The translations under genes were made by a program, and so were the position numbers. A DNA stretch of 64,000 nucleotides from Myxococcota bacterium (lineage in GTDB: Bacteria > Myxococcota_A > UBA796 > CAJQPC01): assembly GCA_036012755.1 (NCBI GenBank), contig DASCPX010000129.1:32001-96000 (forward strand). The letters are read 5' to 3'. The notes under the pieces were generated by a model. That model was not told where the DNA came from. It ran no database searches and saw nothing but the letters and a program-made list of their open reading frames with translations. Shown here one piece after another: positions 13,091 to 63,129 of this stretch (position 1 is the stretch's first letter; the number at the start of each line of letters is the position of its first letter).

Positions 13091-13506
13091 CGGGCGTCGA
13101 AGGTGTCGGTGTGGACGCAGGGGCTCGGCAGCGAGCCGCACATGGTCGCGGTGGCGTCCGAGTCCGCCGGGCTCGTCCACTCGGTGTCGATCGACCTCTC
13201 GATGTACGGGTACGGGAAGTCGATGAAGGAGAGACCCTGGTAGACCGCGGGGCTGTCGAAGGTCGCGCCTTCGCAGTTGACGAACGTGACCGTCGGGGTC
13301 ACCTCGAGCCCGGCCAGGTCGCTCGTCCTCGCAGCCCATGAGGAACGTCCCGGTCGAGAGCAGGGAGGCGACCGACTCGGACGGCGAGCCGGATGCTGCG
13401 TCGGGCACGTAGAGGTGCCAGTTCGAGTCGACAACGAGGCCGCCGCTTTGGCAGTCACCCGGCTCGTGCTGGCGCGGGATCCTCGGCGTCTCCTGAGCGC
13501 GCGCAA
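13087..13506 (-). pseudogene. Gene remnant, frameshifted near 13325
   Basis: HEPGDCQSGGLVVDSNWHLYVPD...LMGCEDE in one frame, DLAGLEVTPTVTFVNCEG...DTFDAR* in another; no clear start. Confidence 0.35.
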
Positions 13507-13693
13507 CCCCGCAAGATCGATGCCACGATCGAGATCGCCAGCAACCTACCAATTCGGCCCCACATGGTGCCCTCCCAAGAGTGTGTCCAACCCGACGGTC
13601 GCTCTGGGGGAGGCGAGGATCAAGAGGAATCGACTGGCGATCCGCCTCCGGGGTGTGGGCCGCCACCCAGCTTCAGCGCATCCTGCGGCTGAT

Positions 13694-15358
13694 TCAGTCC
13701 GGCATGCCGACGACCGTGCGCACGCCGTCGCGGGCCACCCAGACCTTCTGGTTCGCGTCGACGTCAGCGTGACGCGTCACGGTGCCGTCCGGCCAGATGA
13801 CGTCGAGGCGATCGACGGTCTCGTGTTCACCCAGGCCGAAGTGGGCCTCGTTGGGCCCGCCGTACCCCAGCGAGGTCCCCCCGGCGACGATCCAGCGGAT
13901 CTGTGACTCGCCGTCGACCACCACGCGGACCTTCGCGCCGATGGCGTGGGTGTTGGGCGCCGGGTGGGCGAGGCGGACCCTCAGCCAGTTGTCTGTCCCG
14001 CAGCGGGAGAGGTGGAGCGTCGCTGGCTCGTAGGCCATGCGCTTGACGATGTCCAGGTAGCCGTCATCGTTCAGGTCGACGGGCGCGAAGCCCCGCCCGG
14101 CCCCGAGCTGGTCCGAGAAAGCCCAGTCGTCGGCGACGAGCTCGAAGACGCCGTCGTCGTTCTGCAGCCAGAGCCCGTCCGGCTGCTCTTCGGGGTTCTC
14201 GGGGTGCTCCCGTCGCGCTCCCCGGATGGACTCGCCGAACATGACGACGAGGTCGAGGTCCGTGTCGTTGTCCAGGTCCACCAACTCGGCGCCCCAGGCG
14301 ACGATGCGGTCGTCCTCCTTCGGCAGGGTCAGGCCGCGGACCGCGGTCGTGTCGTACCAGGACATCGGCCCCGCCGACTCGAGGAGCCACAGGCGTCCCC
14401 AGTCGGTGACGAGCATGTCGATGTACTCGTCCCCGTTGAGATCCCCGATGCCAAGGCCCATCCCGTCCATGTCCAGGAAGGCGGAGGATTCGCCGCTGAT
14501 GTCCTCGAAGAGCAGCTCCCCGTCCTCGATGCGGTTCTCGAGCAGGCGGTTGCCGTACATGATGTGGCCGAAGGCGTTCACCGAGTAGAGATCGGGGTCG
14601 AGGTCCGCGTCGAGGTCCAGCCAGGCCGTGAGGAAGGTGTAGCTGACGCTGGCCTCGCGGGACAGGATGTCCTCGCGCAGCTCGAAGCTGCCGTCGCCGA
14701 GGTTCTCGTAGACCTGGTTCGGAGGCCCGTCGTCGGGAGGATCGTAGAACTCCTCGTCGGCGGTGGAGGTCTCGTTCGACACGACGAGGTCCAGGTCTCC
14801 GTCGAGGTCCATGTCGCCCCACGCGCTGCCCTTCGAAGCGTAGACCAGCTCTTCGAACACGCTGGTCCTCGTGGCATCGGTGAACCAGCCCCCGTCGTTG
14901 CGGTACAGACGGTTCTTCAAGCCCACCGCCTGCGCAAAGACGTCTATGTCCCCGTCACCGTCGTAGTCCGCGGCGCTCCCTCCCCACAGGTTGTGTTCGT
15001 TGCGATCCGGCAGGATCTCGTCACTCAGATCGCTCATCGACCCGTCGTCCTTGAGCCTGAAGACCCACGAGGCCGACTTGTTCGTGAGGAAGATCTCGTA
15101 GCGCCCGTCCCCGGTGATGTCCGCGACGACGAGGCCCGGAGAGTCGCGCCGTTCTCCGCTGTCGTAGGGCTGGTCGTTCCACGTGTCGCCAAGGTCTGGA
15201 GCGTAGAGCGGCCCCTCGGTCTCGCGCAGGGAGGGGTCTTCGCAGGTGATCTGTTCCCCGAGGATCAGGTCCCCGTCCACGAGGATCTCGCCAGCGTTGT
15301 CACCGGCCTCCGCGCCGGGTCTCGGCGTCGGTCCGCTGCAGGCCAGGAGCCAGATCAC
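13694..15358 (-). CDS. CRTAC1/ASPIC-UnbV family FG-GAP repeat lipoprotein
   Basis: Repeated DxDGDxD motifs (ADYDGDGDID, WGDMDLDGDLDL); C-terminal NTHAIGAKVRV..AHFGLG..LDVIWPDG; start GTG 15358 (VIWLLAC). Confidence 0.88.
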   Translation of the reverse strand: MIWLLACSGPTPRPGAEAGDNAGEILVDGDLILGEQITCEDPSLRETEGPLYAPDLGDTWNDQPYDSGERRDSPGLVVADITGDGRYEIFLTNKSASWVFRLKDDGSMSDLSDEILPDRNEHNLWGGSAADYDGDGDIDVFAQAVGLKNRLYRNDGGWFTDATRTSVFEELVYASKGSAWGDMDLDGDLDLVVSNETSTADEEFYDPPDDGPPNQVYENLGDGSFELREDILSREASVSYTFLTAWLDLDADLDPDLYSVNAFGHIMYGNRLLENRIEDGELLFEDISGESSAFLDMDGMGLGIGDLNGDEYIDMLVTDWGRLWLLESAGPMSWYDTTAVRGLTLPKEDDRIVAWGAELVDLDNDTDLDLVVMFGESIRGARREHPENPEEQPDGLWLQNDDGVFELVADDWAFSDQLGAGRGFAPVDLNDDGYLDIVKRMAYEPATLHLSRCGTDNWLRVRLAHPAPNTHAIGAKVRVVVDGESQIRWIVAGGTSLGYGGPNEAHFGLGEHETVDRLDVIWPDGTVTRHADVDANQKVWVARDGVRTVVGMPD

Positions 15359-23646: not shown

Positions 23647-23662
23647 TGGCACGGCCTTTGCT
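23647..23662 (+). promoter_or_regulatory. sigma54 (-24/-12) promoter
   Basis: TGGCACGGCCTTTGCT, exact TGGCACG-N4-TTGC consensus with GG-N10-GC spacing, intergenic. Confidence 0.7.
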
Positions 23663-29111: not shown

Positions 29112-30095
29112 ATGAAGGCCCCCATTGTCGTCGCAGTGACCGGCGCCGCCGGCAACATCGGCTACGCCCTGCTCTTCCGTCTCGCCTCTGGCGACTGCTA
29201 CGGAAAGGACCAGCCGGTCATCCTGCAGCTGCTCGAGATCACCCCGGCGCTGTCCGCCCTGGAGGGGGTCGTGATGGAGCTCAACGACGGCGCCTTCCCT
29301 CTCCTGCACGGCGTCGAGATCAGCGATGACGCCAACGTCGCCTTCCGCGGTGTCAACCAGGCCTTCCTCGTCGGCGCACGCCCCCGCGGTCCCGGCATGG
29401 TCCGCGCTGACCTGGTCGCCGCGAACGGGCCCATCTTCGTCGGCCAGGGCAGGGCGCTCAACGACAACGCCGCGGACGATGTCCAGGCCATCGTCGTCGG
29501 CAACCCCGCCAACACCAACGCGCTGATCGCCATCCACAACTCGCCGGACATCCCCAACGACCGCATCCACGCCATGACCCGGCTGGACCAGAACCGCGGC
29601 AAGTCCCAGATCGCCGCGAAGGCTGGGGTCACCCCCGGCGAGGTGACGAACCTCGGCATCTACGGCAACCACTCGCCGTCGATGTTCCCGGACTTCCTCC
29701 ACGCCAGGGTCGGTGGGCAGCTCGCCATCGAGGCGATCCCCGAGAAGACCTGGTGGCACGAGCACTTCATGGGCGTCGTGCCGACCCGCGGCAAGGCCAT
29801 CATCGCGGCCCGCGGTGCCTCCTCTGCAGCCAGCGCGGCCAGCGCCGCCATCGACCACGCCTCCACCCTCTGGAACGGCACCCCGGAGGGCGAGGTCGCC
29901 AGCATCGGTATCTACAGCACCGGCGACTGGTACGGACTGCCAGAGGATCTCGTCTACAGCGTGCCGTGCACGGTGAAGGACCGGGTCGTCACCCCTGTCA
30001 CCGACATCGAGCACGGTCAGTGGGCGACGGAGCGCATCGCGGCCTCTGCAGAAGACCTCCTCGGAGAGCGCTCGGCGGTCGCTGAGCTGCTGTAG
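29112..30095 (+). CDS. mdh: Malate dehydrogenase
   Basis: [64 protein letters not shown]. Confidence 0.95.
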
Positions 30096-30198
30096 TTCGG
30101 GTTGGATCTGGGGTCCGGTGATCCCATCCCCGTGAGACAAAGAGATCGCAGTTGTCGGACTATCCCGACAAGTGCTTGACATTCTGGGGCCGCCCAAC

Positions 30199-30214
30199 TG
30201 GCACGCTTCTTGCG
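30199..30214 (+). promoter_or_regulatory. sigma54 (-24/-12) promoter
   Basis: TGGCACGCTTCTTGCG, exact consensus, 70 nt upstream of ATG 30284; dyad TTGTCGG-N6-CCGACAA at 30152-30171. Confidence 0.72.
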
Positions 30215-30283
30215 AAGTGAGAAGTTGACCGGGTGTGCGTTCGCTATCGAACATGCAGGCACCCCAACGTCCGGAAGGAGCCC

Positions 30284-31843
30284 ATGTCCCGCACCGCTCT
30301 TGTCATAGGCGCTCTTGGAGCGACACTCATCGGCTGCTCCGATCAGAGCCTTCACGCCATCGACGACGCCAACGGCGCCGGAGGGCCCGAGATAGCGGTC
30401 GATCCAGAGGTCATCGACTTCGGGACAGCGAGCCGCGGGGAGTACCGGAACGACGTCTTCACCGTCACCAACGTGGGCGACGGCGATCTCCACGTCAGCG
30501 AGATCGTGCTCGCCGACGACGACGCGGGCTTCTCCATCCTGAGCGAGACCCTCGACTTCTACCTGCCGGCGGGCGCCTCGCAGGAGATCGAGGTCGACTG
30601 GACCCCCTTCGGTGTCAGCCAGAAGAACAACGTCTTCGTGACCAGCGACGACGAGGACGTCGAGAAGGCCACGGTCGAGCTGCGCGGCGAGGGCCTCGTC
30701 CCCGAGCTCAAGATCGACCCGGACCCCTACGACCTCGGCAACACCTACGTCGGCTGCCCCCGCACGGGTCAGATCGACCTCGTCAACGTCGGGACCGATG
30801 TGCTCGACGTCGAGTACGTCGACGTGTTCAACGATGGCTACTTCGAGATCGAGAACCCCAACACCCTGCCGGCGACCCTGCAGTCCGGCGAGTCGATCCC
30901 GCTGTACGTCACCTTCGATCCGGACGAGGACATCTCCTACGACGGCGAGATCGTCGTGACCTCTACCGAGCCGAAGGGCACGCGGACGGGCACCCAGACC
31001 GGCCTCGGCCTGTACACGGCCGAGTACAAGGAGAAGTGGGAGGTCCCCTACGACCCGCCCTCGGACATCATGTTCCTGGTCGACCAGTCCTGCTCCATGG
31101 ACGATGACCAGACCCGGCTCGCCAACAACTTCGAGCTCTTCGCAGACACGCTCAACGACTACACCTCCGACTGGCAGATCATCGTCGTGAACGATGACGA
31201 CGGCTGCACCAACAGCGGCATCCTGGTCCCTGGTGGCAGCTCCTGGCGCGATCGCTTCAAGAGCGCCGTGAAGAAGGGTGGTGGCAGCTTCACGGAGTCC
31301 CTGTTGACCCCTGCTGCCTACGCGACCGGCAAGAGCGGGAGCGGCCAGTGCAACGCCGGCTTCATGCGTGACGGAGCGCTCCTTCACATCATCGCCGTGT
31401 CCGACGAGCCGGAGCAGAGCCCCTACACCAGCGGCTACTCCTGGAGCCAGCTGGTCGACATGATGGTGGCGAACAAGGGCAGCGCCTCGTTGGTCAAGGT
31501 CTCCGCGATCGTCGGTGACTACCCCAGCGGGTGCTCCACGGCCGATCCGGGCACCGGCTACTACGAGGCCGCCAACTACACCGGCGGCGAGTTCCTGAGC
31601 ATCTGCGCCAGCAGCTGGTCGGGCTACATGTCGGCGCTGGCCGAGGCCTCCGTCAGCATGGACACCTACGAGCTGAACGCCACGCCGGTCGAGCACACCC
31701 TCTGGGTCGCCGTGAACGACGTCGAGCGCACCAGCGGCTGGTACTACGACAGCGGCGGCAACTCGGTGATCATCACCGAGAACATCCCGGAGGGCGGCGA
31801 CGTCGTGAAGGTCACCTACGCGGGGCTCGCCAACTGCGACTGA
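30284..31843 (+). CDS. Lipoprotein with two Ig-like (choice-of-anchor D/ASH-like) domains and a vWA domain
   Basis: LIGC lipobox; IDFG..VTNVG and YDLG..LVNVG repeats; DIMFLVDQSCSM MIDAS; IIAVSDEPEQS; AAGGAG RBS. Confidence 0.8.
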   Translation: MSRTALVIGALGATLIGCSDQSLHAIDDANGAGGPEIAVDPEVIDFGTASRGEYRNDVFTVTNVGDGDLHVSEIVLADDDAGFSILSETLDFYLPAGASQEIEVDWTPFGVSQKNNVFVTSDDEDVEKATVELRGEGLVPELKIDPDPYDLGNTYVGCPRTGQIDLVNVGTDVLDVEYVDVFNDGYFEIENPNTLPATLQSGESIPLYVTFDPDEDISYDGEIVVTSTEPKGTRTGTQTGLGLYTAEYKEKWEVPYDPPSDIMFLVDQSCSMDDDQTRLANNFELFADTLNDYTSDWQIIVVNDDDGCTNSGILVPGGSSWRDRFKSAVKKGGGSFTESLLTPAAYATGKSGSGQCNAGFMRDGALLHIIAVSDEPEQSPYTSGYSWSQLVDMMVANKGSASLVKVSAIVGDYPSGCSTADPGTGYYEAANYTGGEFLSICASSWSGYMSALAEASVSMDTYELNATPVEHTLWVAVNDVERTSGWYYDSGGNSVIITENIPEGGDVVKVTYAGLANCD

Positions 31844-48531: not shown

Positions 48532-49011
48532 ATGGACCGCAAGCCATCCGTTCCGCGCTCCGGAGTCCGCAAGCGTCTGCCAGGTCACGCCGTGTACCGC
48601 CAGGGCGATTGTCGAGGCCAGTGGCGCCTCCTCGACCTCTCGGAGGGCGGCTTCCAGGCTGCCGGCGACATCGGCGAGCTCGAACTCTCGAAGGACGTCA
48701 TCGTTCGCATCAGGCACGGAGACCGGGACTTCAGCGCTCGTGTCGTGAACGTCTGGCGCCGCCGGACGCCCGGAGGCGACTGTCTGCATGGCTGGGAGAT
48801 CGCCGAGCTCTCGGACGATGCGAGCGTCGGCCTCGAGCTCACCCTCGATGCGGGGGCCGAGAGAGCTCCTCTCCCGAGCCTCCCGAAGGCCCGGCCCGAG
48901 GTCTCCGCCGCGCCGGCACCCTCGACTCCCCGGATTCCATGGGGTGCGTGGGTTGCGCTCCTGAGCCTCACGGCTGCGCTGGTCGCAGGAGTCATCACGC
49001 TCTACCTCTGA
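48532..49011 (+). CDS. PilZ-domain protein with C-terminal membrane anchor
   Basis: RSGVR and DLSEGG motifs, Pro-rich linker, terminal hydrophobic helix. Confidence 0.7.
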   Translation: MDRKPSVPRSGVRKRLPGHAVYRQGDCRGQWRLLDLSEGGFQAAGDIGELELSKDVIVRIRHGDRDFSARVVNVWRRRTPGGDCLHGWEIAELSDDASVGLELTLDAGAERAPLPSLPKARPEVSAAPAPSTPRIPWGAWVALLSLTAALVAGVITLYL

Positions 49012-49092
49012 GCGGCCCGCTCTCGGCGGCCCTGTTGACCGGAGCCGACCCTTCGGCTCTAGTTCCCGCGACCGCTAGCCAGGAAGGCCGTG

Positions 49093-52000
49093 ATGATGGA
49101 CAGCGCGATTCGTATGCTCGGGCTCTGGGGGCTGATCACCCTCGCGCTCGCTCCGGGGATCGCCGCTGCGGCTTGCGGTGACGGCACGCTCGACACGGGC
49201 GAGGACTGTGACGACGAGAACACCACCAATGGCGACGGCTGCGACAGCAGCTGCGCGGTCGAGCTGGGCTGGGAGTGCGTGCAGTCCAGCTTCGAGCTGG
49301 ACTTCGCCGAGGTCGTGTACGACGACGGCCACAGTTCCCCGAGCTGGACGCTGAGCTCGGACAAGGCGACGGTGACGCAGTCCGTCAACGCCGACGCGGC
49401 GGTCTACGTGTCCACCCTGCCCGCCGAGGGCACGGCGATCACGGTCGAGCTGACCGTGAACACCAGCAGCGACGACGACTTCATCGGCTTTGCCCTGGGC
49501 TACGACGCTGGCGAAGGCTCCAGCTCGAGCGGTGAGTGGCTGCTCTTCGACTGGAAGCAAGGCACCCAGTACAGCAGCAACTGCGGCTACGGCAACGCCG
49601 GTACGGCGCTCTCCCTGGTCAGCGGGGCGCTCGCAGTTGGCGACACCTGGTGTCACACGGGCGCTATCAGCGAGATCACCCGGGGCAGCACCTATGGCTC
49701 GACCGGTTGGAGCGACAACACGACCTACACGGTGGTGGTCGAGTGCACCGCTACGACCCTGGACGTGTCGATCAACGGGAGTGTGGACATCGCCGAGACC
49801 GGCACCTTCGACTGCGGCAACTTCGGCTTCTACAACTACAGCCAGGCCAGCATCGAGTACGAGCTCATCGATCCGTTGGACGTCTCGGTCTGTGTCGAGA
49901 TGGACAGCGACGGCGACGGGGTCTACGACGCGGACGAGGACGTCGACGGCTCTGGCGACCTCGACGATGACGACACCGACGGCGACGGGGTCGCCGACTA
50001 CCTCGATACGGACGACGACGGCGACGGCATCGACACGGCGGACGAGGTCTACGACGGCACCACCGACCCCATGGACCAGGACAGCGACGGTGACGGGACC
50101 GCCGACTACCTCGATTCGGACGACGACGACGACGGCGTAGACACCAGCGACGAGGACGTCGACGGCGACGGTGACCCGACCAACGACGACAGCGACGGTG
50201 ATGGCACCGACGACTACCTCGATACGGACGATGACGACGACGGTGTCCTCACAGAGGACGAGGTCGACGAGGGCGACACGGACGGTGACGGCACCGACGA
50301 CTACCTCGACACCGACGACGACGGTGACGGCATCGACACGGCGGACGAGGTCTACGACGGCACCATCGACCCCATGGACCAGGACAGCGACGGTGACGGC
50401 GCTGCCGACTACCTCGACGCGGACGACGACGGTGACGGGGTCGACACCACTGAAGAGGACATCGACGGCGACGGTGACCCCACCAACGACGACTCTGATG
50501 GTGACGGGGACAGCGACTACCTCGATGTCGACGACGACGGCGACGGCATCGACACCATCGACGAGGACGCCGACGGTGACGGCGACCCGACCAACGACGA
50601 CACCGACGGCGACGGGACACCGAACCACCTCGACAGCGACAGCGACGGCGACGGTATCGACGACGACGTCGAGGTGGCAGACGGGACCGATCCCTATGAC
50701 AGCGACTCGGACGACGACGGGCTGGACGACGGCCAGGAGGCGGAGCTGGGCACCGACGCGAACGCGGACGCCGATCTCGACGGAGACGGTCTCAGCGACG
50801 CGGACGAGATCCTCGTCTACGGCACCGACCACGACGACACGGACTCGGACGAGGACGGCATCGAAGACGGGGACGAGGTGACCGAGGGTACGGATCCGGA
50901 CGACGCCGACAGCGACGACGACGGGCTCTCCGACCTCTACGAGCGCGACGTCACCGGCACCGATCCGAACGACAACGACTCAGACGACGACGGCCTCGAC
51001 GATGGCATCGAGCACGTCGTCACCGGCACGGATCCGAACGACTCCGACAGCGACGACGATGGTCTCTCCGATGGCGACGAGGTCACCGCGTACGGCACGG
51101 ATCCCAACCTCGATGACAGCGACGACGACGGTCTGTCCGACGGCGACGAGGTCGACGCGGGGACAGATGCTCTCTCTCGCGACAGCGACGGCGACGGTCT
51201 CTCCGACGGCGACGAGGTCACCGACGGCACGGATCCGCTGGACGGCAGCGACACCGACAACACGGGCACCGACACAGACGGAGATGGACTCTCTGATGCC
51301 TTCGAAGAGGCGATCGGCACGGATCCGGACAACGCCGACACAGACGGTGACGGGCTCTCCGATGGTGACGAGGTCCTCAGCTACGGCACCGACCCGCGCT
51401 GGGGAGACACCGACGGGGACGGCCTCTCCGACGGCGACGAGGTCGACACCTATGGGACCGACGCGCTCTCTCGCGACAGCGACGGTGACGGGCTCGAGGA
51501 TGGGGACGAGCTCCTCGCCAGAGGCACGGACCCGCTCGATGCGGACAGTGACGACGACGGCCTCGACGATGGTGAAGAGGCCGTCTGGGGCACGGACCCG
51601 CTCGATAGCGACAGCGACGGCGACAGCCTGAGCGATGGCGACGAGGTCTGGACCCACGGGACGGATCCGGCCAACGCCGACACCGACGGCGACAGCCTGA
51701 GTGACGGCGAGGAGCTCCTCACCCACGGTACCGATCCGCTCGACGAGGACACGGACGGCGGCGGCGTCTGGGACGGTCAGGAGCTCGACGAGGGCACGGA
51801 CCCGAGCGACGCTGCCGATGATGGCGACGGCACCGACACCGACGGCGACGGGCTCTCGGACGCCTACGAGAACCTCATCGGCACGGACCCCGGGAGCGCT
51901 GATTCCGACGGCGATGGCCTCGATGACGGCGAGGAGGTCGAGAGCTTCGGCACGGATCCGCTGGTGGCGGACAGTGACGGCGATGGCCTCGACGATGGCG

Positions 52001-55775: not shown

Positions 55776-57574
55776 TGTTGTTGTTCATCGGGAGCGTGCT
55801 CGCCGCCGAGCGGGTGACCATCCTCCACACCAACGACTGGCAGTCGCGCCTGCTGGGCACGCCGAACCAGACCTACTCGCCCGAGACCGTCGGAGACGAC
55901 GACTCCCTTGGCGGCGTCGCCCGCATCGCCACCCTGGCCACAGAGCGGCGTGCAGCTATCGACGGTCCGGTGCTGCTCGTCGACGCAGGTGACATCACGA
56001 TGGGCTCGCTCTTCCACCTGGTCTCCCGCGAGACCGGTGGCGAGCTCGAGCTGATGGCGATGCTCGACTACACGGCGGTCACCCTCGGCAACCACGACTT
56101 CGACTTCCGTCCGCAGGGCCTGGCGGACATGATCGGTGCGGCGGGGGCGGTGCCTCCCATCGTGGCCTCGAACCTGGTCCTCGACCCGAATCACCCCGGA
56201 GACGATGGCCTCGAGGCGCTCGTCGAGCAGGGGGTCCTGGTCGATCGACTGATCGTCGAGGAGGAGGGCCTCGTCGTCGGCTTCATCGGCCTGCTCGGCA
56301 AGGACGCGACGGAGGTGATGGGCCAGGCGGAGCCCGTCACCAGCGCGGACCAGGTGGAGACCACGACGCGCCTGGCCAGAGTCCTGCGGGAAGAAGGGGC
56401 CGACCTCGTCGTCGTGCTCTCCCACTCGGGCATCGAGCTGCAGGAGGACGGGACCTGGGGCGACGAGGACGTCGAGCTCCTGCGCGCCGTCCCCGGGGTC
56501 GACGTGCTCGTCTCGGGACACTCACACACGGCGCTGGAGACAGTGGTGATGGTGGATGGCCGGCCCCTGGTCGCCGCCGGCGCCAACACCCAGTTCCTCG
56601 GCGAGCTGAGCCTCGAGCGCTCAGGCGATTCCTGGGTCGTGCTCGACTACGAGCTCCACAGCATCGACGACCAGATCCTCGGCGACCCGGAGGTCACGGC
56701 GAAGGTCGAGGAGCTCCAGGAAGCTGTGAGCGAGCGCCTCGCCCCTGCGCGCTTCGACGACCTCGTCGCGGAGGTGGATCACCCGCTGGGCAAGGCAGAG
56801 GACGAGCACGAGCTGGCCAACATCGTCACCGACGCGTACCGGCTGGCGACCGGGGCCGACCTCGGCATGACCGGCAACGGCACGATCCGGGCCGAGCTCG
56901 CGCCCGGGCCGCTGCAGCGCTCGGATCTCTTCCTCGTCGATCCGCTGGGCATCGGCTCCCTGGATGACAGCCCGGGCTACGCGCTGGTGGTCGCCTGGTT
57001 CACCGGCGACGACATCCAGGACGTCCTCGACTTCCTCCTCATCGCCCACCTCACGAAGGGCTCGAGCTACGTGCCGCGCATCTCCGGCGCGGAGATCTTC
57101 GTGAACCCTCGCCGAATCCCCCTGGACCAGATCGACGAGGTGGTCTTCGCCGATGGCTCCACCCTGGACGACGAGGAGCTCTACGGGGTCGCGATGACCT
57201 CGTACGTGGCCACCTTCATGCCGCTGGTCGCCGACATGACCAAGGGCCTGCTCGCACCCCAGATGCGGGGCGCGGATGGCGCCCCTGTCGATGTCGCCGA
57301 GCTCTACGACAATGACCCGACGACCCCCGACATCCAGGAGCTGAAGGCCTGGCGTGCGCTGGCGGACCACGTCGCGACCATCCCGGATCTGGACGCCGAC
57401 GGACTGCCCGACCTGCCACCGCGCGGTGTCGCGAGCAACCGATTCGTCGAGCGCCCGTCCTGGCGGCTGTTGAAGAACAGCAGCTGGAGGATGAAGTCGG
57501 TGGTGGGGGTCCCGGCAGCCCTGGTGTTGTTGCTGCTGGTCTGGCGGGTCAGGGCGTCCCTTCGCGCCCCGTGA
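55775..57574 (+). CDS. Bifunctional metallophosphatase / 5'-nucleotidase
   Basis: ILHTNDWQS, VDAGD, LGNHDFD, LSHSG, SGHSHT, NG.IR; C-terminal TM. Confidence 0.9.
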
Positions 57575-57992
57575 CCGTGGCGGAGCCCGTGTTGCCGTCG
57601 TAGTCCTCGATGATCATCTTGAACTCGTACTCGTCCGCGGCGCCGGCGCAGTTGATGCCCAGGACATCGGCGTTGAAGGAGCCGATGCAGTCGCCGCTGT
57701 CGGTGTTGCAGGAGAGCAACTCGGCGTCGGTGACGAGGGCGTCGTTCTTGTAGATCTCGACCATGTGGAAGCTCCTCGGCACGTTGTTGAGGCCCTGGGG
57801 GTCGTCGTAGGTCAGGGACATGCTCCAGTTGTAGAACTGGTCGCCGGTGTCGTGGAGGTAGCAGTAGGCGTCAGCGTCGGTGACCACCGGCGAGACGCCG
57901 TCGTCCACGTACTCGCTGTCGTCGGTCGAGCCCGAGTCGTCCACGGGGTTGTCTTTTCCGTCGCAGCTCAGAGCGAACAAGAGTGGCAGCAT
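57549..57992 (-). CDS. Hypothetical lipoprotein
   Basis: MLPLLFALSC; acidic linker; Cys-containing beta domain. Confidence 0.65.
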   Translation of the reverse strand: MLPLLFALSCDGKDNPVDDSGSTDDSEYVDDGVSPVVTDADAYCYLHDTGDQFYNWSMSLTYDDPQGLNNVPRSFHMVEIYKNDALVTDAELLSCNTDSGDCIGSFNADVLGINCAGAADEYEFKMIIEDYDGNTGSATVTGREGTP

Positions 57993-58036
57993 GGGAACCT
58001 CCATCGAATGATCGAGCCTAACCGGAAGTGACGGCG

Positions 58037-58939
58037 ATGCGCCGGGGTCTGTTGCTCGGGTTCACCACCCTGGTGGTGGGCGCGACCCTCGGGTGGTGGC
58101 AGCAGGACCGCATCATCGGTGAGTTCCGCATCCTGGGACGCCGCGGCGCCCTCGCCTGGCAGGTGGACGGGCAGTGGCGGTCGGTCACATCGGAGGATCG
58201 TCGTCGCCGCAGCTGGGGTCCCCACGACGCCTTCCTTCGGGACGGACTCTCATTCGATGTGCTCGAGCCGGGCTTGGAGCTCGCGCGGCTGCGCTACCGG
58301 AGGGATCCGAACCCCGCTGACTACGAGCTCCTCGTCGTTCGGGTCGACCCGGAGCTCTGGAGCTTCCGAGTTCGTGGGGAGGAGGACTTCCGCCGTGCGT
58401 CCATCTCCGAGCTTGCGGGTGACGCCAACATCGCTCTCAACGCGAGCTTCTTCGCCGAGGAGGGCCCTGTGGGGCTGGTCCTGCAGGATGGCATCGAGCG
58501 CGTGCCCCAGGGCTCGGCGCGGGCGGCCCACTTCCTGGTGGACCCGGTCTACGGACCTCGCGTCGACAACCGGAAGGGCGCGTCCCTCGAGGGGGTGGAG
58601 CACGGCGTCCAGGGCTTCCCGGCGATCATGAGCGGTGGAGAGACCTACTCCTACATGCGCGTGGGTGGTCGGGGGTTCCCGGTCCACCAGCTCAGTCGGC
58701 GGACGGCGGTGTGCTTGGACTGGGAGGGGCAGGTCCTGCTCACCGTGACCGACACGCCGCTCAACGGCTTGACCCTCAACGAGCTCGCCACGGTGCTCGG
58801 GGGACTCGGCTGCGAGGACGCGATGGGCCTGGACGGGGGATCCAGCACCGCCCTGTATGTGCGTGCAGGCGAGCGCAGCGTGACCGTGGATGCTCGGGAC
58901 GGAATCCCGGTGGCCATCCTGGTGGAGCCTAGGATCTGA
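58037..58939 (+). CDS. Phosphodiester glycosidase (NAGPA-like) family protein
   Basis: ALNASFF, RRTAV, GLTLNELA..L..LGCEDAMGLDGGSSTAL. Confidence 0.85.
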   Translation: MRRGLLLGFTTLVVGATLGWWQQDRIIGEFRILGRRGALAWQVDGQWRSVTSEDRRRRSWGPHDAFLRDGLSFDVLEPGLELARLRYRRDPNPADYELLVVRVDPELWSFRVRGEEDFRRASISELAGDANIALNASFFAEEGPVGLVLQDGIERVPQGSARAAHFLVDPVYGPRVDNRKGASLEGVEHGVQGFPAIMSGGETYSYMRVGGRGFPVHQLSRRTAVCLDWEGQVLLTVTDTPLNGLTLNELATVLGGLGCEDAMGLDGGSSTALYVRAGERSVTVDARDGIPVAILVEPRI

Positions 58940-59100
58940 ATTGCCCAACTCAGAATTGTAGATCCCAACACGTATCCACAAGACATTTCGGTAACTTGGT
59001 GCCAGCCGTGCCGAACGTGTGATGGCCCTGTGGACAGGGTTGGGCAGGATTGATCCAGCGTCACTGAGGCTAAGTGCCTGAAATCCCGTTCCTCGAAAGT

Positions 59101-59116
59101 TGGCACGGGGCATGCA
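59101..59116 (+). promoter_or_regulatory. sigma54 (-24/-12) promoter upstream of the putative large ncRNA
   Basis: TGGCACGGGGCATGCA with GG-N10-GC spacing; predicted +1 near 59127, 2 nt before the terminal helix begins. Confidence 0.68.
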
Positions 59117-59128
59117 TATGAGAGCCAC

Positions 59129-60263
59129 GACATCCGGGCATAACAATCCGGAGTCGACCGAGGGGAACCTCGGAACGTTCTTTGACGTCGACAATGCCAA
59201 CAGAAGGGTCTTCGGACCTGGAAGATGGCGAATGAAAGCCCAAGAGAGCAACGGGCGCTCCGCCACCGGAAACGGGGGTGGGACGCAACGGACTCTTCAG
59301 TGGATAAAGCCTTGAAGTCGATCGCCTGGACGGGCGGACTGGCCAAGCGGGACCTGGCAACGGGAAGCGTGGAAGCGGGACCAACCGGACAGAGGTGACT
59401 GGAAGCTGACGGCTCATGCCTGAAGCGGATGGGAATGGGCGGTGGCGCGGAGAGCGCGGCAGTGAGCGAACCTCGAGAACGCTTGGTGGCCGCGAAGGAA
59501 ACGCCAACGTCGTGAAACGGCAAGAAGGCAAGGTCTCGCGGTGACGCGGGAGCAGCTGCTGAGGAGGAGAAAGCTCTGAAGGGTCGGGCGTCGCGGAGAC
59601 GCGTTTGCGAACGAGTGCATTCTCGGGAGTGAGCGAGGTCGAACGCGGCGAACCCCAAGACCGGCTGCAGGGTGCAATAGACCTGCGGAGCCCGGGCGGA
59701 GAAAACCGCTGAGGTGGGGAGGAACCACGAGAGCGGAACGAGCGGGGCGCTTGGCAGCGCAACGCCGAAGGGAAGTCGAGCGAGACGAGACGCGTCCGAG
59801 CGTCACGACTCACAAAGCGAGGCTGACCGGGAGAGGACGCACGGGAAGGCGCTGGTAGAGGGGTGAGACCTGGACCCAAACCCATGAGAGGAGGTCGAGC
59901 AATCGACCAGCACGGAAGCCGCGTGTCTCTGTAGGGGAATCGAAGTTCATGAAGGCAACGCCTGTGAAAGGCGAGAGGTGGAAGCGAAGACCTCGAGGGC
60001 CATCCGGTCAATCAAACGTGTGAACAACGCGGACCGGGCAAGGCCGAGGAGGAGTCGGGAAAGGCCAAACGACCCGATAGTGACCACAACGGAGAGAGGG
60101 CGCGCTGTTTCGGCAGCGAGACCCGCTCAGAGCCCTGAAGGACCCGACAACTCCATGAGAGGCCAACCGAGCGCAATGGAACCAGTTTCGGCTGGGGTAT
60201 GCGCGAGGGGAAGGCGACCGAGGCGTAAGCCTCTGTAGGGAAGTCCCTCCGGGCTCGGATGTC
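59129..60263 (+). ncRNA. Putative large (~1135 nt) structured non-coding RNA of unrecognised family
   Basis: No credible CDS. 5' GACATCCGGGC (59129-39) pairs with 3' GCTCGGATGTC (60253-63), and CCGGAG (59148-53) with CTCCGG (60247-52). Many GNRA/UUCG hairpins on the + strand; promoter upstream, terminator downstream. Confidence 0.8.
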
Positions 60264-60268
60264 ACCCA

Positions 60269-60307
60269 GAAGCCCCGAGAGCGAAAGCTCTCGGGGTTTT
60301 CTGCTTT
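60269..60307 (+). terminator. Intrinsic terminator
   Basis: GAAGCCCCGAGAGC-GAAA-GCTCTCGGGGTTTT followed by CTGCTTT. Confidence 0.85.
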
Positions 60308-60351
60308 GGATCTGGAGGCGTCTCGGCTGGAGACGCCTGTCTCGCAGAGAC

Positions 60352-61365
60352 TCAGTGCACGACGCTGGCGATCGCGGGAGCTCGAAGCATCACGCGGTCC
60401 TCGCCGGGCAGGCGGACTCGGCGGAGCAGGCCCGCCATCATCAGCCGTTCGTCGACCTCGGGCTCGATGGAGAGGGGCTCGCCGGAGAGCAGATCATCCA
60501 GGCGGCAGCTCATCCAGGTGTCGGACCGGACGATGTCGACAGCGGAGCGGATCTCCTGGGCGAGGGGCCCCATGGACTTGACGAGGCCGTCGCGGGTCCG
60601 GGGCATGCCTCCCCCGCGGGCGTCGTCGCCGAGGGCGTCGACGACGGCTGGAATGCCCCCGGAGAATCGGGCCGCGGACTCCAGGGGGGTGCGCTCCGTG
60701 ATCCCCGAACGACCGACGATGGCGGCGGCGGCTTCGGCCTCGCCATAGTCTGCGAGGGGCACGCGCGCGGCGTCCTCTAGCACCAGCGAGGGCACGTCGA
60801 CGGCAGCGGCGAGCAGCATCGTCGTCTTGCGGTTCGCCGGGTACCAGCGCACGAAGTCGGACCAGATGCGGGAGAGGTCCTCGAGGGTCTCGATGGGGAG
60901 GTACTCGGCTCCGTGCCCGAGCAAGGCGACGGCTGCGCCGCGCTCCTCGAAGCGATCCTGGGCGTTCATCAGGAGGTCCAGGGCCAGGGTGCGGAAGCCG
61001 TGCCGGCCGGCCACCATCGGCACCGGGCGATCGTTCCACTCGTCCGAGCAGAGCTGCGAGAGGATCTGCAGGACGAAGTGCCAGGCCTCGGGCGCGCGCC
61101 GGCCCTTCAGGGGACGGAAGGACACCGTGCGGCAGCCGACAGCGGGCTCTCCGACGGCGAGGTCGAGAGCCAGCTCCTCGAGGAAGGTCTGGGGCTTCGA
61201 CCAGCGCGGGGTCGTGAGGATCATCGGCTCCAGCCGGCGGAGGTGCGTGCGCACCTTGCGAGCCGTGCGGCCACGCAGCGCGGCCTCGATGAAGTGCTGA
61301 TCGGGATCGAAGGAGTCCCGCCGGGCCACCCTCAACATCTGCATCCTGCGTGCGAGCCGGCTCAT
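60352..61365 (-). CDS. Degenerate STAND/AAA-like NTPase-fold protein
   Basis: ILTTPRWSKPQTF at the Walker A position, VALLGHGAEYL at the Walker B position, FSGGIP (GxP-like), C-terminal LMMAGLLRR winged-helix-like end. Confidence 0.55.
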   Translation of the reverse strand: MSRLARRMQMLRVARRDSFDPDQHFIEAALRGRTARKVRTHLRRLEPMILTTPRWSKPQTFLEELALDLAVGEPAVGCRTVSFRPLKGRRAPEAWHFVLQILSQLCSDEWNDRPVPMVAGRHGFRTLALDLLMNAQDRFEERGAAVALLGHGAEYLPIETLEDLSRIWSDFVRWYPANRKTTMLLAAAVDVPSLVLEDAARVPLADYGEAEAAAAIVGRSGITERTPLESAARFSGGIPAVVDALGDDARGGGMPRTRDGLVKSMGPLAQEIRSAVDIVRSDTWMSCRLDDLLSGEPLSIEPEVDERLMMAGLLRRVRLPGEDRVMLRAPAIASVVH

Positions 61366-61470
61366 CTTCTGCCTCTACGTAGGGAGAGACAATGGTCGCC
61401 CGCAAAGTCTTGCGATGTCAAGAGTCCAGTAGATGTGTCACTTTAAGGAACACCGCTTATCATCGCGAGC

Positions 61471-63129
61471 GTGAGTCGCCCCCCGCGCCACACCCTGGTC
61501 CCCAACGCCAACAACGTGAGGCTGCTGGCGCGGCTTCTCGAGCTGGTCGCGCAAGGGGTGCGCGAGCCACGCACGCTGGCCGAGGTCCTCGACTGCGAGG
61601 TCCGCACGGTCCACTACTACACCCAGGCTGGGGACTGGCTGAACCTGCTCGAGACCGACGAGCGCACCCACCGTCCCTACCTCACCCGGCTGGGTCTGGA
61701 GTACGTCTACGCCGGCCGAAAGAGGGCGCGGGTCTACTCGCGCGCCGTGTGGGGGACGCAGTTCGTCGCCCAGCTGATGGACGGCCGCCGCACCCTCCCG
61801 GAGAACGAGGCCATCGCGGCCTTCATCCGGAAGAACGTGCCCGACATGGCTGCCTCCACGTCCAGGCGCCGAGCGAGCGCGGTCCGCAGCCTGCTGGAGC
61901 CGGCGATGCGCTACCCGGCGCCGAGCAGCTCGGGTCACCAGCTGAGCCTGGACCTCGGGCTCGCCCAGCCCCCAAGGGTCACGGAGCCGCCGCTGGACCT
62001 GTCGGTCGGCACGGAGGGCTCGCCGGATGTCTACCGACTCGTGCTGAGGGCGCTGCTCGACTTCGGAGAGCTGAGCCTGTGGCACGTCCGGGCGCTGCTG
62101 GACCGGGCCGGAGGGCAGGACTGCCCGGTCGCGCCCTATGTCGAGCTTGCCGTCGAGCGAGGTGACGCCTGGCGCGTCGGGGATCGGATCGTCGTCAGCT
62201 TCGGCGCGGCCTGGCGCCGGGACCTCGCCGACACGGTCGCGGGGGTGGCGCTGAGCGACCCCGGCTACAGGGCCTACCTCACGGTCCTTCGCCAGACCGC
62301 AGACGGGGATCCGGGCGCGGCCATGGACTATGCGCGTCTCCAGGAGCGCTACGCCGCCTGGGACCGCCGCATCTTCGGCCGCGAGGTCCGGCCTCCAGAG
62401 CTCGCAGCGGACCTCGACCGTGTCCTGCTGGGCCGGCCGATCGACGCTTTTCCGCTCGCTGGCGAGCCCGGGCCGGAGCCCTCTCCCCTCACCGGCGCCT
62501 TCCTGTCCATCTGCGAGCACGAAGGGGTCGTCATCGCCCTGCCGCCGTCCCTGGGCCAGCTGGTCGACGGGGTCTCCGGGGCCAATGCTGCGCTGGAAGC
62601 CCGCCGAACCGGCGAAGGCAGCCGCACTCCCAGCCACCTCGACAGGCGCGAGCTGGTCCACGGGGGCCTGTTCCACCCGGGCGAGGTGCGAGGGCGTGCC
62701 ATCCCCGACCGCGTCACCCTGCGGCACCGAGCGCTCTGTCACGTGCCCCACCTGGCCATGGTCGCCGCACTGTTGGTGGCGCACCGGAAGCGGCGTGGGG
62801 CCTTGCGGATCCGGGCCAGCGAGAGCCGCCTGGAGCTCAGGCTGGGCCGACGCTCCATGGGAGAGCTGCTCTACCTGTTGGACGAGTTCTGCTCGGAGCA
62901 GGGCTGGCTGGTGGCCCGTCGCCCCCGGGCGGGACTCTCCGGGGCCAGCATCGCGGCGGTGCTCGAGTCGCTGGGGGTCGCGGTGCGCTTCGATGACCTC
63001 CTCGTCCTCGACGAGGCCTTCTTCGTCCGGCTGCAGTCCGACGCGGAGGATCGGGAGATCTACGAGGGCCTCCTGCCCTTGTCCGAGCGACTCGTCGCCT
63101 TCCTCGAGGAGTGGCGCGGGGAGCCATGA
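61471..63129 (+). CDS. Hypothetical multi-winged-helix protein
   Basis: VPNANN..LAEVLDCEVRTVHYYTQAGDWLNLL HTH-like N-terminus, STSRRRASAVRSLL, further helix-wing-like segments; GTG start. Confidence 0.6.
   Translation: MSRPPRHTLVPNANNVRLLARLLELVAQGVREPRTLAEVLDCEVRTVHYYTQAGDWLNLLETDERTHRPYLTRLGLEYVYAGRKRARVYSRAVWGTQFVAQLMDGRRTLPENEAIAAFIRKNVPDMAASTSRRRASAVRSLLEPAMRYPAPSSSGHQLSLDLGLAQPPRVTEPPLDLSVGTEGSPDVYRLVLRALLDFGELSLWHVRALLDRAGGQDCPVAPYVELAVERGDAWRVGDRIVVSFGAAWRRDLADTVAGVALSDPGYRAYLTVLRQTADGDPGAAMDYARLQERYAAWDRRIFGREVRPPELAADLDRVLLGRPIDAFPLAGEPGPEPSPLTGAFLSICEHEGVVIALPPSLGQLVDGVSGANAALEARRTGEGSRTPSHLDRRELVHGGLFHPGEVRGRAIPDRVTLRHRALCHVPHLAMVAALLVAHRKRRGALRIRASESRLELRLGRRSMGELLYLLDEFCSEQGWLVARRPRAGLSGASIAAVLESLGVAVRFDDLLVLDEAFFVRLQSDAEDREIYEGLLPLSERLVAFLEEWRGEP

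Follow-up and report, generated by a model that had tools for sequence, protein, structure and literature searches.

The 64,000-nt stretch of Myxococcota DNA analysed here (assembly GCA_036012755.1, contig DASCPX010000129.1, positions 32,001 to 96,000; hereafter the window, whose own numbering is used throughout) almost certainly carries a real, expressed and structured RNA gene of a new family. The gene lies on the + strand, its closing helix spanning 59129-60263, between a NAGPA-family gene and a convergent gene of unknown function. Its product is probably a stable, highly structured non-coding RNA (ncRNA) of about 1.14 kb, driven by sigma-54 and possibly of scaffold type, that belongs to an undescribed Myxococcota family with members of 0.94-2.66 kb. 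It is among the largest bacterial ncRNAs outside the ribosome. A first-pass annotation made from the sequence alone had described a stand-alone large RNA gene of a possibly undescribed class, and this description is supported by the negative Rfam searches, the homologues, their covariation and the RNA-derived contigs presented below.

Compensatory base-pair changes, the mark of a structured ncRNA, occur above control levels in the homologues. Across 30 sequences of the conserved core, 20 of the 23 predicted pairs are compensatory; 92.5% of the cells are paired compared with 74.8% after shuffling, a value that none of 500 shuffles equalled, and slid partners give 29-39%. Domain II was analysed in 66 sequences, where 28 of 33 pairs are compensatory, the long-range closing helices 59653-65/59851-63 among them. 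Here 95.4% of the cells are paired versus 76.7% in the shuffles, the covariation score is 0.551 versus 0.203, and again no shuffle out of 500 reaches the observed value. Slid controls for the core and domain II together are 29-43% paired, versus 92-95% observed. The consensus fold of 82 sequences, running from the core to the 3ˊ end, contains nested helices in which pairing reaches 85-97% and each position shows 2-5 types of pair.

The terminal helix P1 covaries in the same way. Its 5ˊ strand occupies 59129-59153 (59129-39 and 59148-53, with 59140-47 bulged) and its 3ˊ strand 60247-60263, both on the + strand. In the sequence, 11 bp with a single G-U join 59129-39 to 60253-63, and a second helix joins 59148-53 to 60247-52; the minimum free energy (MFE) fold of 59129-60263 closes the ends by 59129-39/60253-63 and 59148-52/60248-52; and the two arms change together across lineages, for example GACACCCGG/CCGGGTGTC, GGCACCTGG/CCAGGTGCC and TGCGTCGGG/TTCGACGCA. 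The earlier observation that the ends pair over 1.1 kb is therefore borne out by sequence, fold and homologues alike.

An intrinsic terminator follows the closing helix at 60270-60307 (+), with an 11-bp GC stem (60272-82/60287-97), a GAAA loop and then UUUUCUGCUUU; the hairpin at 60272-60297 and its U-run agree with the terminator that the first-pass annotation had placed at this point. A simple terminator scan of the region did not list it. In relatives, a hairpin and T-run likewise stand directly after the 3ˊ arm, and some metagenome contigs stop inside the first C-run of the terminator. Transcription itself probably continues to about 60307. The terminator hairpin may then be trimmed, and the end-to-end helix that is left would protect a long-lived RNA.

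Transcription is documented by environmental RNA. In 13 metatranscriptome runs, which come from five studies (marine, seawater and hydrothermal vent), 85-93% of the words sampled from the stretch are present. In four runs of four studies, compared over 57500-62000, we found one contig each, of 1078-1151 nt and with 0 differences from the window; they cover 59137-60267, 59141-60267, 59141-60266 and 59185-60262. Letters ahead of 59141 are sequencing adapter in two of the runs, and one small contig has a poly(A) run after 60268. We give the extent of the RNA as 59127-60267, with the 5ˊ limit set from the promoter. No RNA-run contig from the four runs was found on either flank within 57500-62000, absent cover being weak evidence. 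The word depth of the contigs is 22-284, contigs not being a measure of expression level. Since the contigs of four studies end at the same places, they fit a discrete RNA, and a discrete transcript is what the four RNA runs show, its exact ends not being fixed by the contigs. Its size of about 1.13 kb agrees with the + strand transcript of about 1.15 kb that had been anticipated, its strand not being given by the contigs. Two of the same runs (X7 and X11) also contain contigs of relatives' versions of the RNA, one with a word depth of 1189, higher than that of the window's own RNA, and one 2168 nt long.

A strict core pattern matched at least 120 stretches of a metagenome collection, and 120 of the 120 listed carry the core. 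Each of the 80 stretches retrieved whole is a complete contig, of only 1.0-2.7 kb, and 78 of them lack the promoter. The 5ˊ block starts at contig nucleotide 1-15 in 48 of the 53 contigs that bear it; of the 54 contigs that include the last closing motif, 39 stop 18-53 nt past it, at or just beyond the 3ˊ arm. These contigs look like assembled transcripts. Mutual pairing of contig ends was discarded as an indicator, as the 7-8 bp helices with G-U pairs occur at about chance level; end pairing is convincing only in L232, L270, L223 and L272, which have perfect helices of 8-10 bp.

The RNA is single copy in its own genome and has relatives across the phylum. By BLAST, 13 of 40 relatives have collinear blocks, as do 31 of 154 genomes of the order when the window's own is counted (only two candidates in each genome were given a score). 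Of 151 genomes sampled across the phylum, 32 matched a covariance model built from the 136 core positions; these matches are spread over many families, with up to six copies per genome, and the same model had no match in four well-sampled families (0/11, 0/13, 0/6 and 0/9). Named records, which assign the RNA to Myxococcota, are a Myxococcota-labelled metagenome-assembled genome (MAG), a 'Deltaproteobacteria' MAG and a MAG with a doubtful Enterobacteriaceae label. In a first scan of a genome collection with a degenerate pattern, 3 of 120 among the matches listed were real by nhmmer (L097, L160 and L075). Locus L075 (CAYQSE010000051.1), from an 'uncultured Enterobacteriaceae' MAG, is a full member of 1245 nt with promoter, terminal helix and terminator; its taxonomic label looks wrong or its contig mis-binned.

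The recurring layout of the family comprises a sigma-54 promoter, the terminal helix 11-13 nt past the -12 element, the core, the 3ˊ arm and the terminator. Members measure about 940-950 nt, 1007-1763 nt, 1938 nt, 2407 nt and, in three paralogues of one genome, 2617-2656 nt, and the length varies mainly between the 5ˊ end and the core. Of the 4227 models of Rfam 15, among them those for OLE, ROOL, GOLLD, HEARO, raiA, RNase P, tmRNA, 6S, SRP, rRNAs and group I/II introns, none matched anywhere in the window at gathering score, and ten other family members (43 kb) gave 0 matches; these negatives favour novelty, and the absence of ribosomal RNA (rRNA), tmRNA, RNase P or group I/II intron hallmarks noted at the outset is matched by the absence of any such Rfam match. 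At E<=10, the region 58900-60400 yields only three weak matches, all on the terminator hairpin region (60270-60299), where they correspond to terminator stems of other families. A full-text search, with subscription journals and supplements outside its scope, found no published description of such an RNA. The first-pass annotation also judged the RNA longer than OLE, ROOL or GOLLD RNAs, and this holds, since for GOLLD, which is the largest of them, one account lists sizes above 800 nt (PMC12286853). With members up to 2.66 kb, the family goes beyond the size first claimed.

The promoter expected directly ahead of the closing helix is present, but it is of the canonical sigma-54 type; a sigma-70 scan of the region returned 0 sites. 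It reads TGGCACGGGGCATGCA (TGGCACG-N4-ATGCA) at 59101-59116 (+), with GG at 59102-03 and GC at 59114-15 in the correct 12-nt register, and it predicts an RNA start at about 59127-59128, one or two bases ahead of the terminal helix. The own genome of 6.7 Mb has only 27 strict sigma-54 sites, and it encodes rpoN. With the -24 GG and -12 GC of the promoter form TGGCAC-N5-TTGCW in register and rpoN in the genome, the RNA gene is, on sequence grounds, a predicted sigma-54 gene. Of 34 oriented loci, 27 have a sigma-54 motif on the upstream side of the core, at a distance of 427-1487 nt; three of the seven loci first missing it were later resolved, one genome having a 5ˊ domain longer by 2 kb and two a TGCC variant. 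At one locus (L201; G031:C29:1-14000) the RNA gene is present twice in the same orientation, the copies lying 3.6 kb apart and sharing the promoter TGGCACGCTTCCTGCA without a change, which looks like a recent tandem duplication. A term search of a 2025 survey of sigma-54 regulons found no mention of non-coding RNAs there (PMC12316311).

Upstream of the promoter stands an enhancer-like element at 59026-59059 (+), about 40-75 nt upstream of the -24 element, in which CCCTGTGGACAGGG is followed by the imperfect inverted repeat TTGGGCAGGATTGATCCAGC; the outer repeat occupies 59026-39 and the window's version of the inverted repeat 59040-59059. A by-eye alignment of 35 upstream regions places the inverted repeat at the same position, with the consensus TGGGAAAT-N5-ATTTCCCA; the 8-mer ATTTCCCA occurs in 14 of the 35 loci, ATGGGAAA in 13 and the outer repeat CCTGTGGA in seven. 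We infer that the inverted repeat is a putative site for one orthologous enhancer-binding activator. Between this element and the promoter lies the conserved block CTAAGTGCCTGAAATCCCGT (59070-59089, +), whose form (T/C)AAGTNNCTGAAATNNCGT recurs in L001, L002, L014, L015, L008, L010, L028, L029, L037 and L213; it is a possible DNA-bending site. By eye, none of the other 26 strict sigma-54 sites of the own genome shows the RNA's upstream repeat. One of them lies in the window itself at 23647-23662 (+), about 25 nt ahead of an ATG, with the sequence TGGCACGGCCTTTGCT; a loose palindrome regular expression matched upstream of this site, alone among the 26. In five relatives, matches to the palindrome stayed at the level of a reversed-pattern control, with the promoter alongside in 0 of 15 loci.

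The fold-energy z score of the RNA is -5.9 on the + strand and -1.45 on the - strand, compared with -1.6 to +0.6 for coding controls (dinucleotide shuffles, 30 for the RNA and 12 for the controls). All nine hairpins listed by the first-pass annotation are in the sequence and eight of them are in the MFE fold, which replaces CGCG-GAGA-CGCG at 59592 by 59589-95/59644-50. G-U pairs, read earlier as a sign of the + strand, are frequent in the covarying helices, which fits that strand.

From the 5ˊ end (all features on the + strand), P1 is followed by the hairpin CCGAGG-GGAA-CCUCGG (59158-59173), present in the MFE fold and kept in 22 aligned genome copies as ACCGAG...CUCGG with a variable apex, and by the invariant pyrimidine-rich motif GUUCUUUGACGUC (59177-59189), which includes CUUUGACGU at 59180-88 and a palindrome, ACGU/GACGUC. 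Within it, CTTTGACGT is kept in 22 of 22 aligned genome copies, and in another 29 contigs, searched with a regular expression that requires the motif, CUUUGACGU likewise lies close to the 5ˊ end. Pairing of the 5ˊ GACGUC with a 3ˊ GACGUC was considered and dropped; few sequences allow it, with one compensatory case (L270), and it is not general. Domain I is closed by CCCAAGAGAGC (59239-59249) and GCUCUGAAGGG (59573-59583), of which the MFE fold pairs 59245-49 with 59573-77; motif comparison recovers the same pair in L002 and L015.

Domain II (59650-59863) is the conserved core, closed by CCCC 59653-56/GGGG 59860-63 and ACCGGC 59660-65/GCUGGU 59851-56. It contains a hairpin (59666-71/59682-87) with the conserved loop GUGCAAYAGA and, in the core fold, the helices 59706-10/59732-36 and 59714-17/59725-28 and a hairpin with a UGGCA loop at about 59742-65; the block CGGGAGAGGACGC (59828-59840; family consensus cGGGAGUGGACGC) is conserved in the 82-sequence alignment. 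Beyond the core, two nested helices are common to the consensus and MFE folds, ACCC-AUG-AGAG/CUCU-GUA-GGGA (59880-90 with 60231-41) and UCUCU-GUA-GGGG/CUCC-AUG-AGAGG (59926-37 with 60151-62). Between their 5ˊ strands lies the hairpin GGUCGA-GCAA-UCGACC (59893-59908), and between their 3ˊ strands lie the hairpins 60182-95 and 60220-33, found in both folds. Several domains share the closing motif CCC-ANGA-stem/stem-GNA-GGG. The invariant words of the core loop (59672-59681; UGCA, in variants GCGC) and of the 5ˊ motif (59180-59188; ACGU/GACGUC) are self-complementary. In OLE and GOLLD, palindromes of this sort mark intermolecular kissing loops, and we treat those found here as leads for possible oligomerisation only.

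The region had been described as the only long gap in a gene-dense window, purine-rich on the + strand and without the genome's codon pattern, and this holds. A scan of codon-position GC periodicity over the 64 kb leaves 58801-60480 as the sole stretch of at least 1 kb without it, the next longest being 510 nt; GC skew is 0.2-0.3 and AT skew 0.3-0.46. Shorter stretches of about 0.5 kb without the periodicity lie at 13291-13800, 29941-30450 and 48721-49200. None of the eight open reading frames (ORFs) overlapping the RNA region matches Pfam. The three 2.6-kb paralogues of one genome are 58-71% identical over their whole length, their substitutions are even across the phases (431/445/437) and their indels are rarely multiples of three; the 82-sequence alignment of the family has no period-3 signal. 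No coding signal was thus found by any of these routes.

The upstream NAGPA-family gene ends at 58939, and the convergent downstream gene (60352-61365, -), which ends at 60352, encodes an unknown protein of 337 aa with no Pfam match. The window neighbours of the RNA gene are a NAGPA gene, a 5ˊ-nucleotidase gene, the gene of this unknown protein and that of a 552-aa DUF7226 protein (61471-63129, +); in another genome with a family member (G016), a DUF7226 protein lies about 2 kb away (L198:12337-13992), on the opposite side of the RNA from that in the window. No tRNA or tmRNA was found in 58500-60800, and no phage or plasmid record matched the RNA. Across 22 loci, 113 neighbouring ORFs have no common protein family, transposase or activator and are ordinary chromosomal genes; the RNA is a stand-alone gene with no conserved partner gene adjoining it. 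DNA-repair or stress genes adjoin family members at L197, L202, L199, L075, L210, L097 and L204 (UvrB, Mfd/TRCF, an NAD-dependent ligase, a 5ˊ-3ˊ exonuclease, a photolyase-like protein and, twice, YaaA), which may be chance or a core-genome location.

We propose that transcription would proceed through RpoN and one orthologous enhancer-binding activator, and that the RNA would therefore be made on a signal. The conserved core with its variable periphery would act as a folded particle, and the RNA would work in trans as a scaffold, not by coding, antisense pairing or as a simple protein sponge. That the RNA acts as a scaffold, in a protein-bound or an RNA-only assembly, is a tentative proposal to which we give somewhat less than even chances; it is put forward by analogy, because of the size, the conserved core and variable periphery, the paired ends and the abundance. 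More tentative still is the possibility that the RNA is the founding member of a new giant bacterial RNA class of 0.94-2.66 kb, widespread in Myxococcota, abundant in environmental transcriptomes, switched by sigma-54 and an activator, and folding into a defined particle that might be an RNA-only homo-oligomer or the core of a ribonucleoprotein (RNP) machine or ribozyme.

Several points weigh against the reading of the gene as a sigma-54-driven, scaffold-type RNA. The scaffold role itself is proposed by analogy, and no conserved partner protein is encoded next to the gene. The RNA-run contigs begin 9-14 nt past the predicted start, and none of the four covers the terminator hairpin, which may reflect processing or loss at the transcript ends. 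They do not show the strand, which is taken as + because of the promoter, the terminator, the G-U pairs and the fold energy. The transcript reading of the metagenome contigs rests on where these contigs end, not on library type. A sigma-54 motif was seen in only 3 of 20 loci outside the order, with 1.5 kb examined, and three copies in one complete genome have none within 2.2 kb. These three (L208-L210, in a single-contig genome of 9.4 Mb), together with L211 and L214, are core matches of 50-57 bits in non-coding stretches, all with no recognisable sigma-54 motif within 2.2 kb upstream, and may form a divergent subfamily with another promoter. Finally, the dense tetraloop hairpins of the first-pass annotation exist as hairpins, but GNRA and UUCG words are no more frequent than expected from composition (z 1.5 and 0.4); the structure signal therefore comes from the helices and not from the loop sequences.

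A sponge or decoy that titrates an RNA-binding regulator such as CsrA, Hfq or another protein would account for the purine-rich strand, for the CsrA encoded in the own genome and for the motif pair CCCANGAGAG/CUCUGNAGG, which is repeated 1-3 times per RNA; a sigma-54 promoter, moreover, has precedent among decoy RNAs. The binding words that such a function would use are not enriched: relative to dinucleotide shuffles GGA occurs 50 times versus 45.9 expected, A.GGA 8 versus 11.5 and (ARN)3 4 versus 5.7, and with GGAGG included z ranges from -1.2 to 0.9. The recurring motif is no more frequent in the 2.6-kb members, and the fold, with its several domains and covarying long-range helices, differs from the plain repeated hairpins of known sponges, for which so elaborate a structure is unnecessary. 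We therefore consider a sponge unlikely. A ribozyme, or the RNA subunit of a catalytic RNP with the core as its active site, on the model of RNase P or self-splicing introns, would suit the size, the invariant unpaired nucleotides at the helix junctions of the conserved core and the variable peripheral extensions; with no match to any Rfam ribozyme family, no flanking exons, intron-encoded ORF or repeated insertion sites, and neighbouring genes that suggest no substrate, this explanation is less likely again than the sponge. That the element is not a gene of its own but a long leader or trailer, an antisense transcript, a decayed gene or a mobile-element remnant is very improbable, for although minus-strand open frames of 313-338 aa cross the region and several genomes hold 2-6 copies, the element has its own promoter and terminator and a convergent downstream gene, the RNA contigs stop at its ends, it lacks Pfam matches and codon periodicity, its paralogues are 58-71% identical and not near-identical with no flanking transposase or repeat, and it is without phage or plasmid matches and single copy in its own genome.

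Large, elaborately folded RNAs with genes of their own are rare in bacteria, and to our knowledge each one studied has revealed new RNA biology, from the ribosome, RNase P and tmRNA to, recently, OLE, ROOL and GOLLD. At up to 2.66 kb the present family reaches the size of 23S rRNA and exceeds every non-ribosomal RNA of that set; its comparative support is strong, and it turns up in transcript assemblies of many environments. The sigma-54 promoter and the conserved enhancer-like site offer a regulatory handle, so induction is testable, and more than 100 natural variants provide material for structure determination and for finding partners. The family also raises the question of the role that an RNA of kilobase size plays in bacteria that are predatory and have a complex development.

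The sigma-54 promoter links the RNA to sigma-54 regulatory RNAs such as CrcZ, GlmY, Qrr and NfiS and the rsr-Y RNA-rtcBA operon of Salmonella, whose -24/-12 promoters are under an enhancer-binding activator. CrcZ and GlmY are sigma-54-dependent decoys in Proteobacteria, and NfiS and CrcZ/CrcY are RpoN-linked ncRNAs in Pseudomonas. In contrast to CrcZ, GlmY, Qrr and NfiS, which are sponges or base-pairing RNAs of 100-400 nt, the RNA described here is 1-2.7 kb long, has a covarying multi-domain fold without sponge motif enrichment and matches no Rfam family. With the precursors of 16S and 23S rRNA and with RNase P RNA it shares a long helix that joins the termini, a terminator apparently absent from the mature form, and a conserved core with lineage-specific expansions and a more than twofold change in length; it differs from them in having no sequence or model similarity, and any processing to mature ends is putative here.

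Like OLE, the RNA is encoded on a bacterial chromosome by a gene of its own, is large, conserved and elaborately folded, is highly expressed and has no known biochemical function. It does not match the OLE Rfam model, occurs in another phylum, is about 2-4 times as long as OLE and has a sigma-54 promoter; OLE adjoins oap genes (oapA and others), whereas the 113 neighbouring ORFs of 22 loci include no conserved partner. In the account cited above, the function of OLE is called 'poorly understood', GOLLD is said to have 'many members exceeding 800 nucleotides', GOLLD and ROOL serve as precedents for multimers made of RNA only and joined through kissing loops, and both RNAs are located in phages or prophages, in many cases close to tRNA islands (PMC12286853). 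The RNA of the window has no Rfam match, no phage match and no tRNA nearby, and is larger than GOLLD as sized there. Like GOLLD and ROOL, it is very large and ornate, with many long-range helices and invariant palindromes (UGCA/GCGC and ACGU) in its loops and linkers. It works most like OLE, ROOL and GOLLD, from which its phylum, genomic context, promoter and size set it apart, yet is a member of none of these families.

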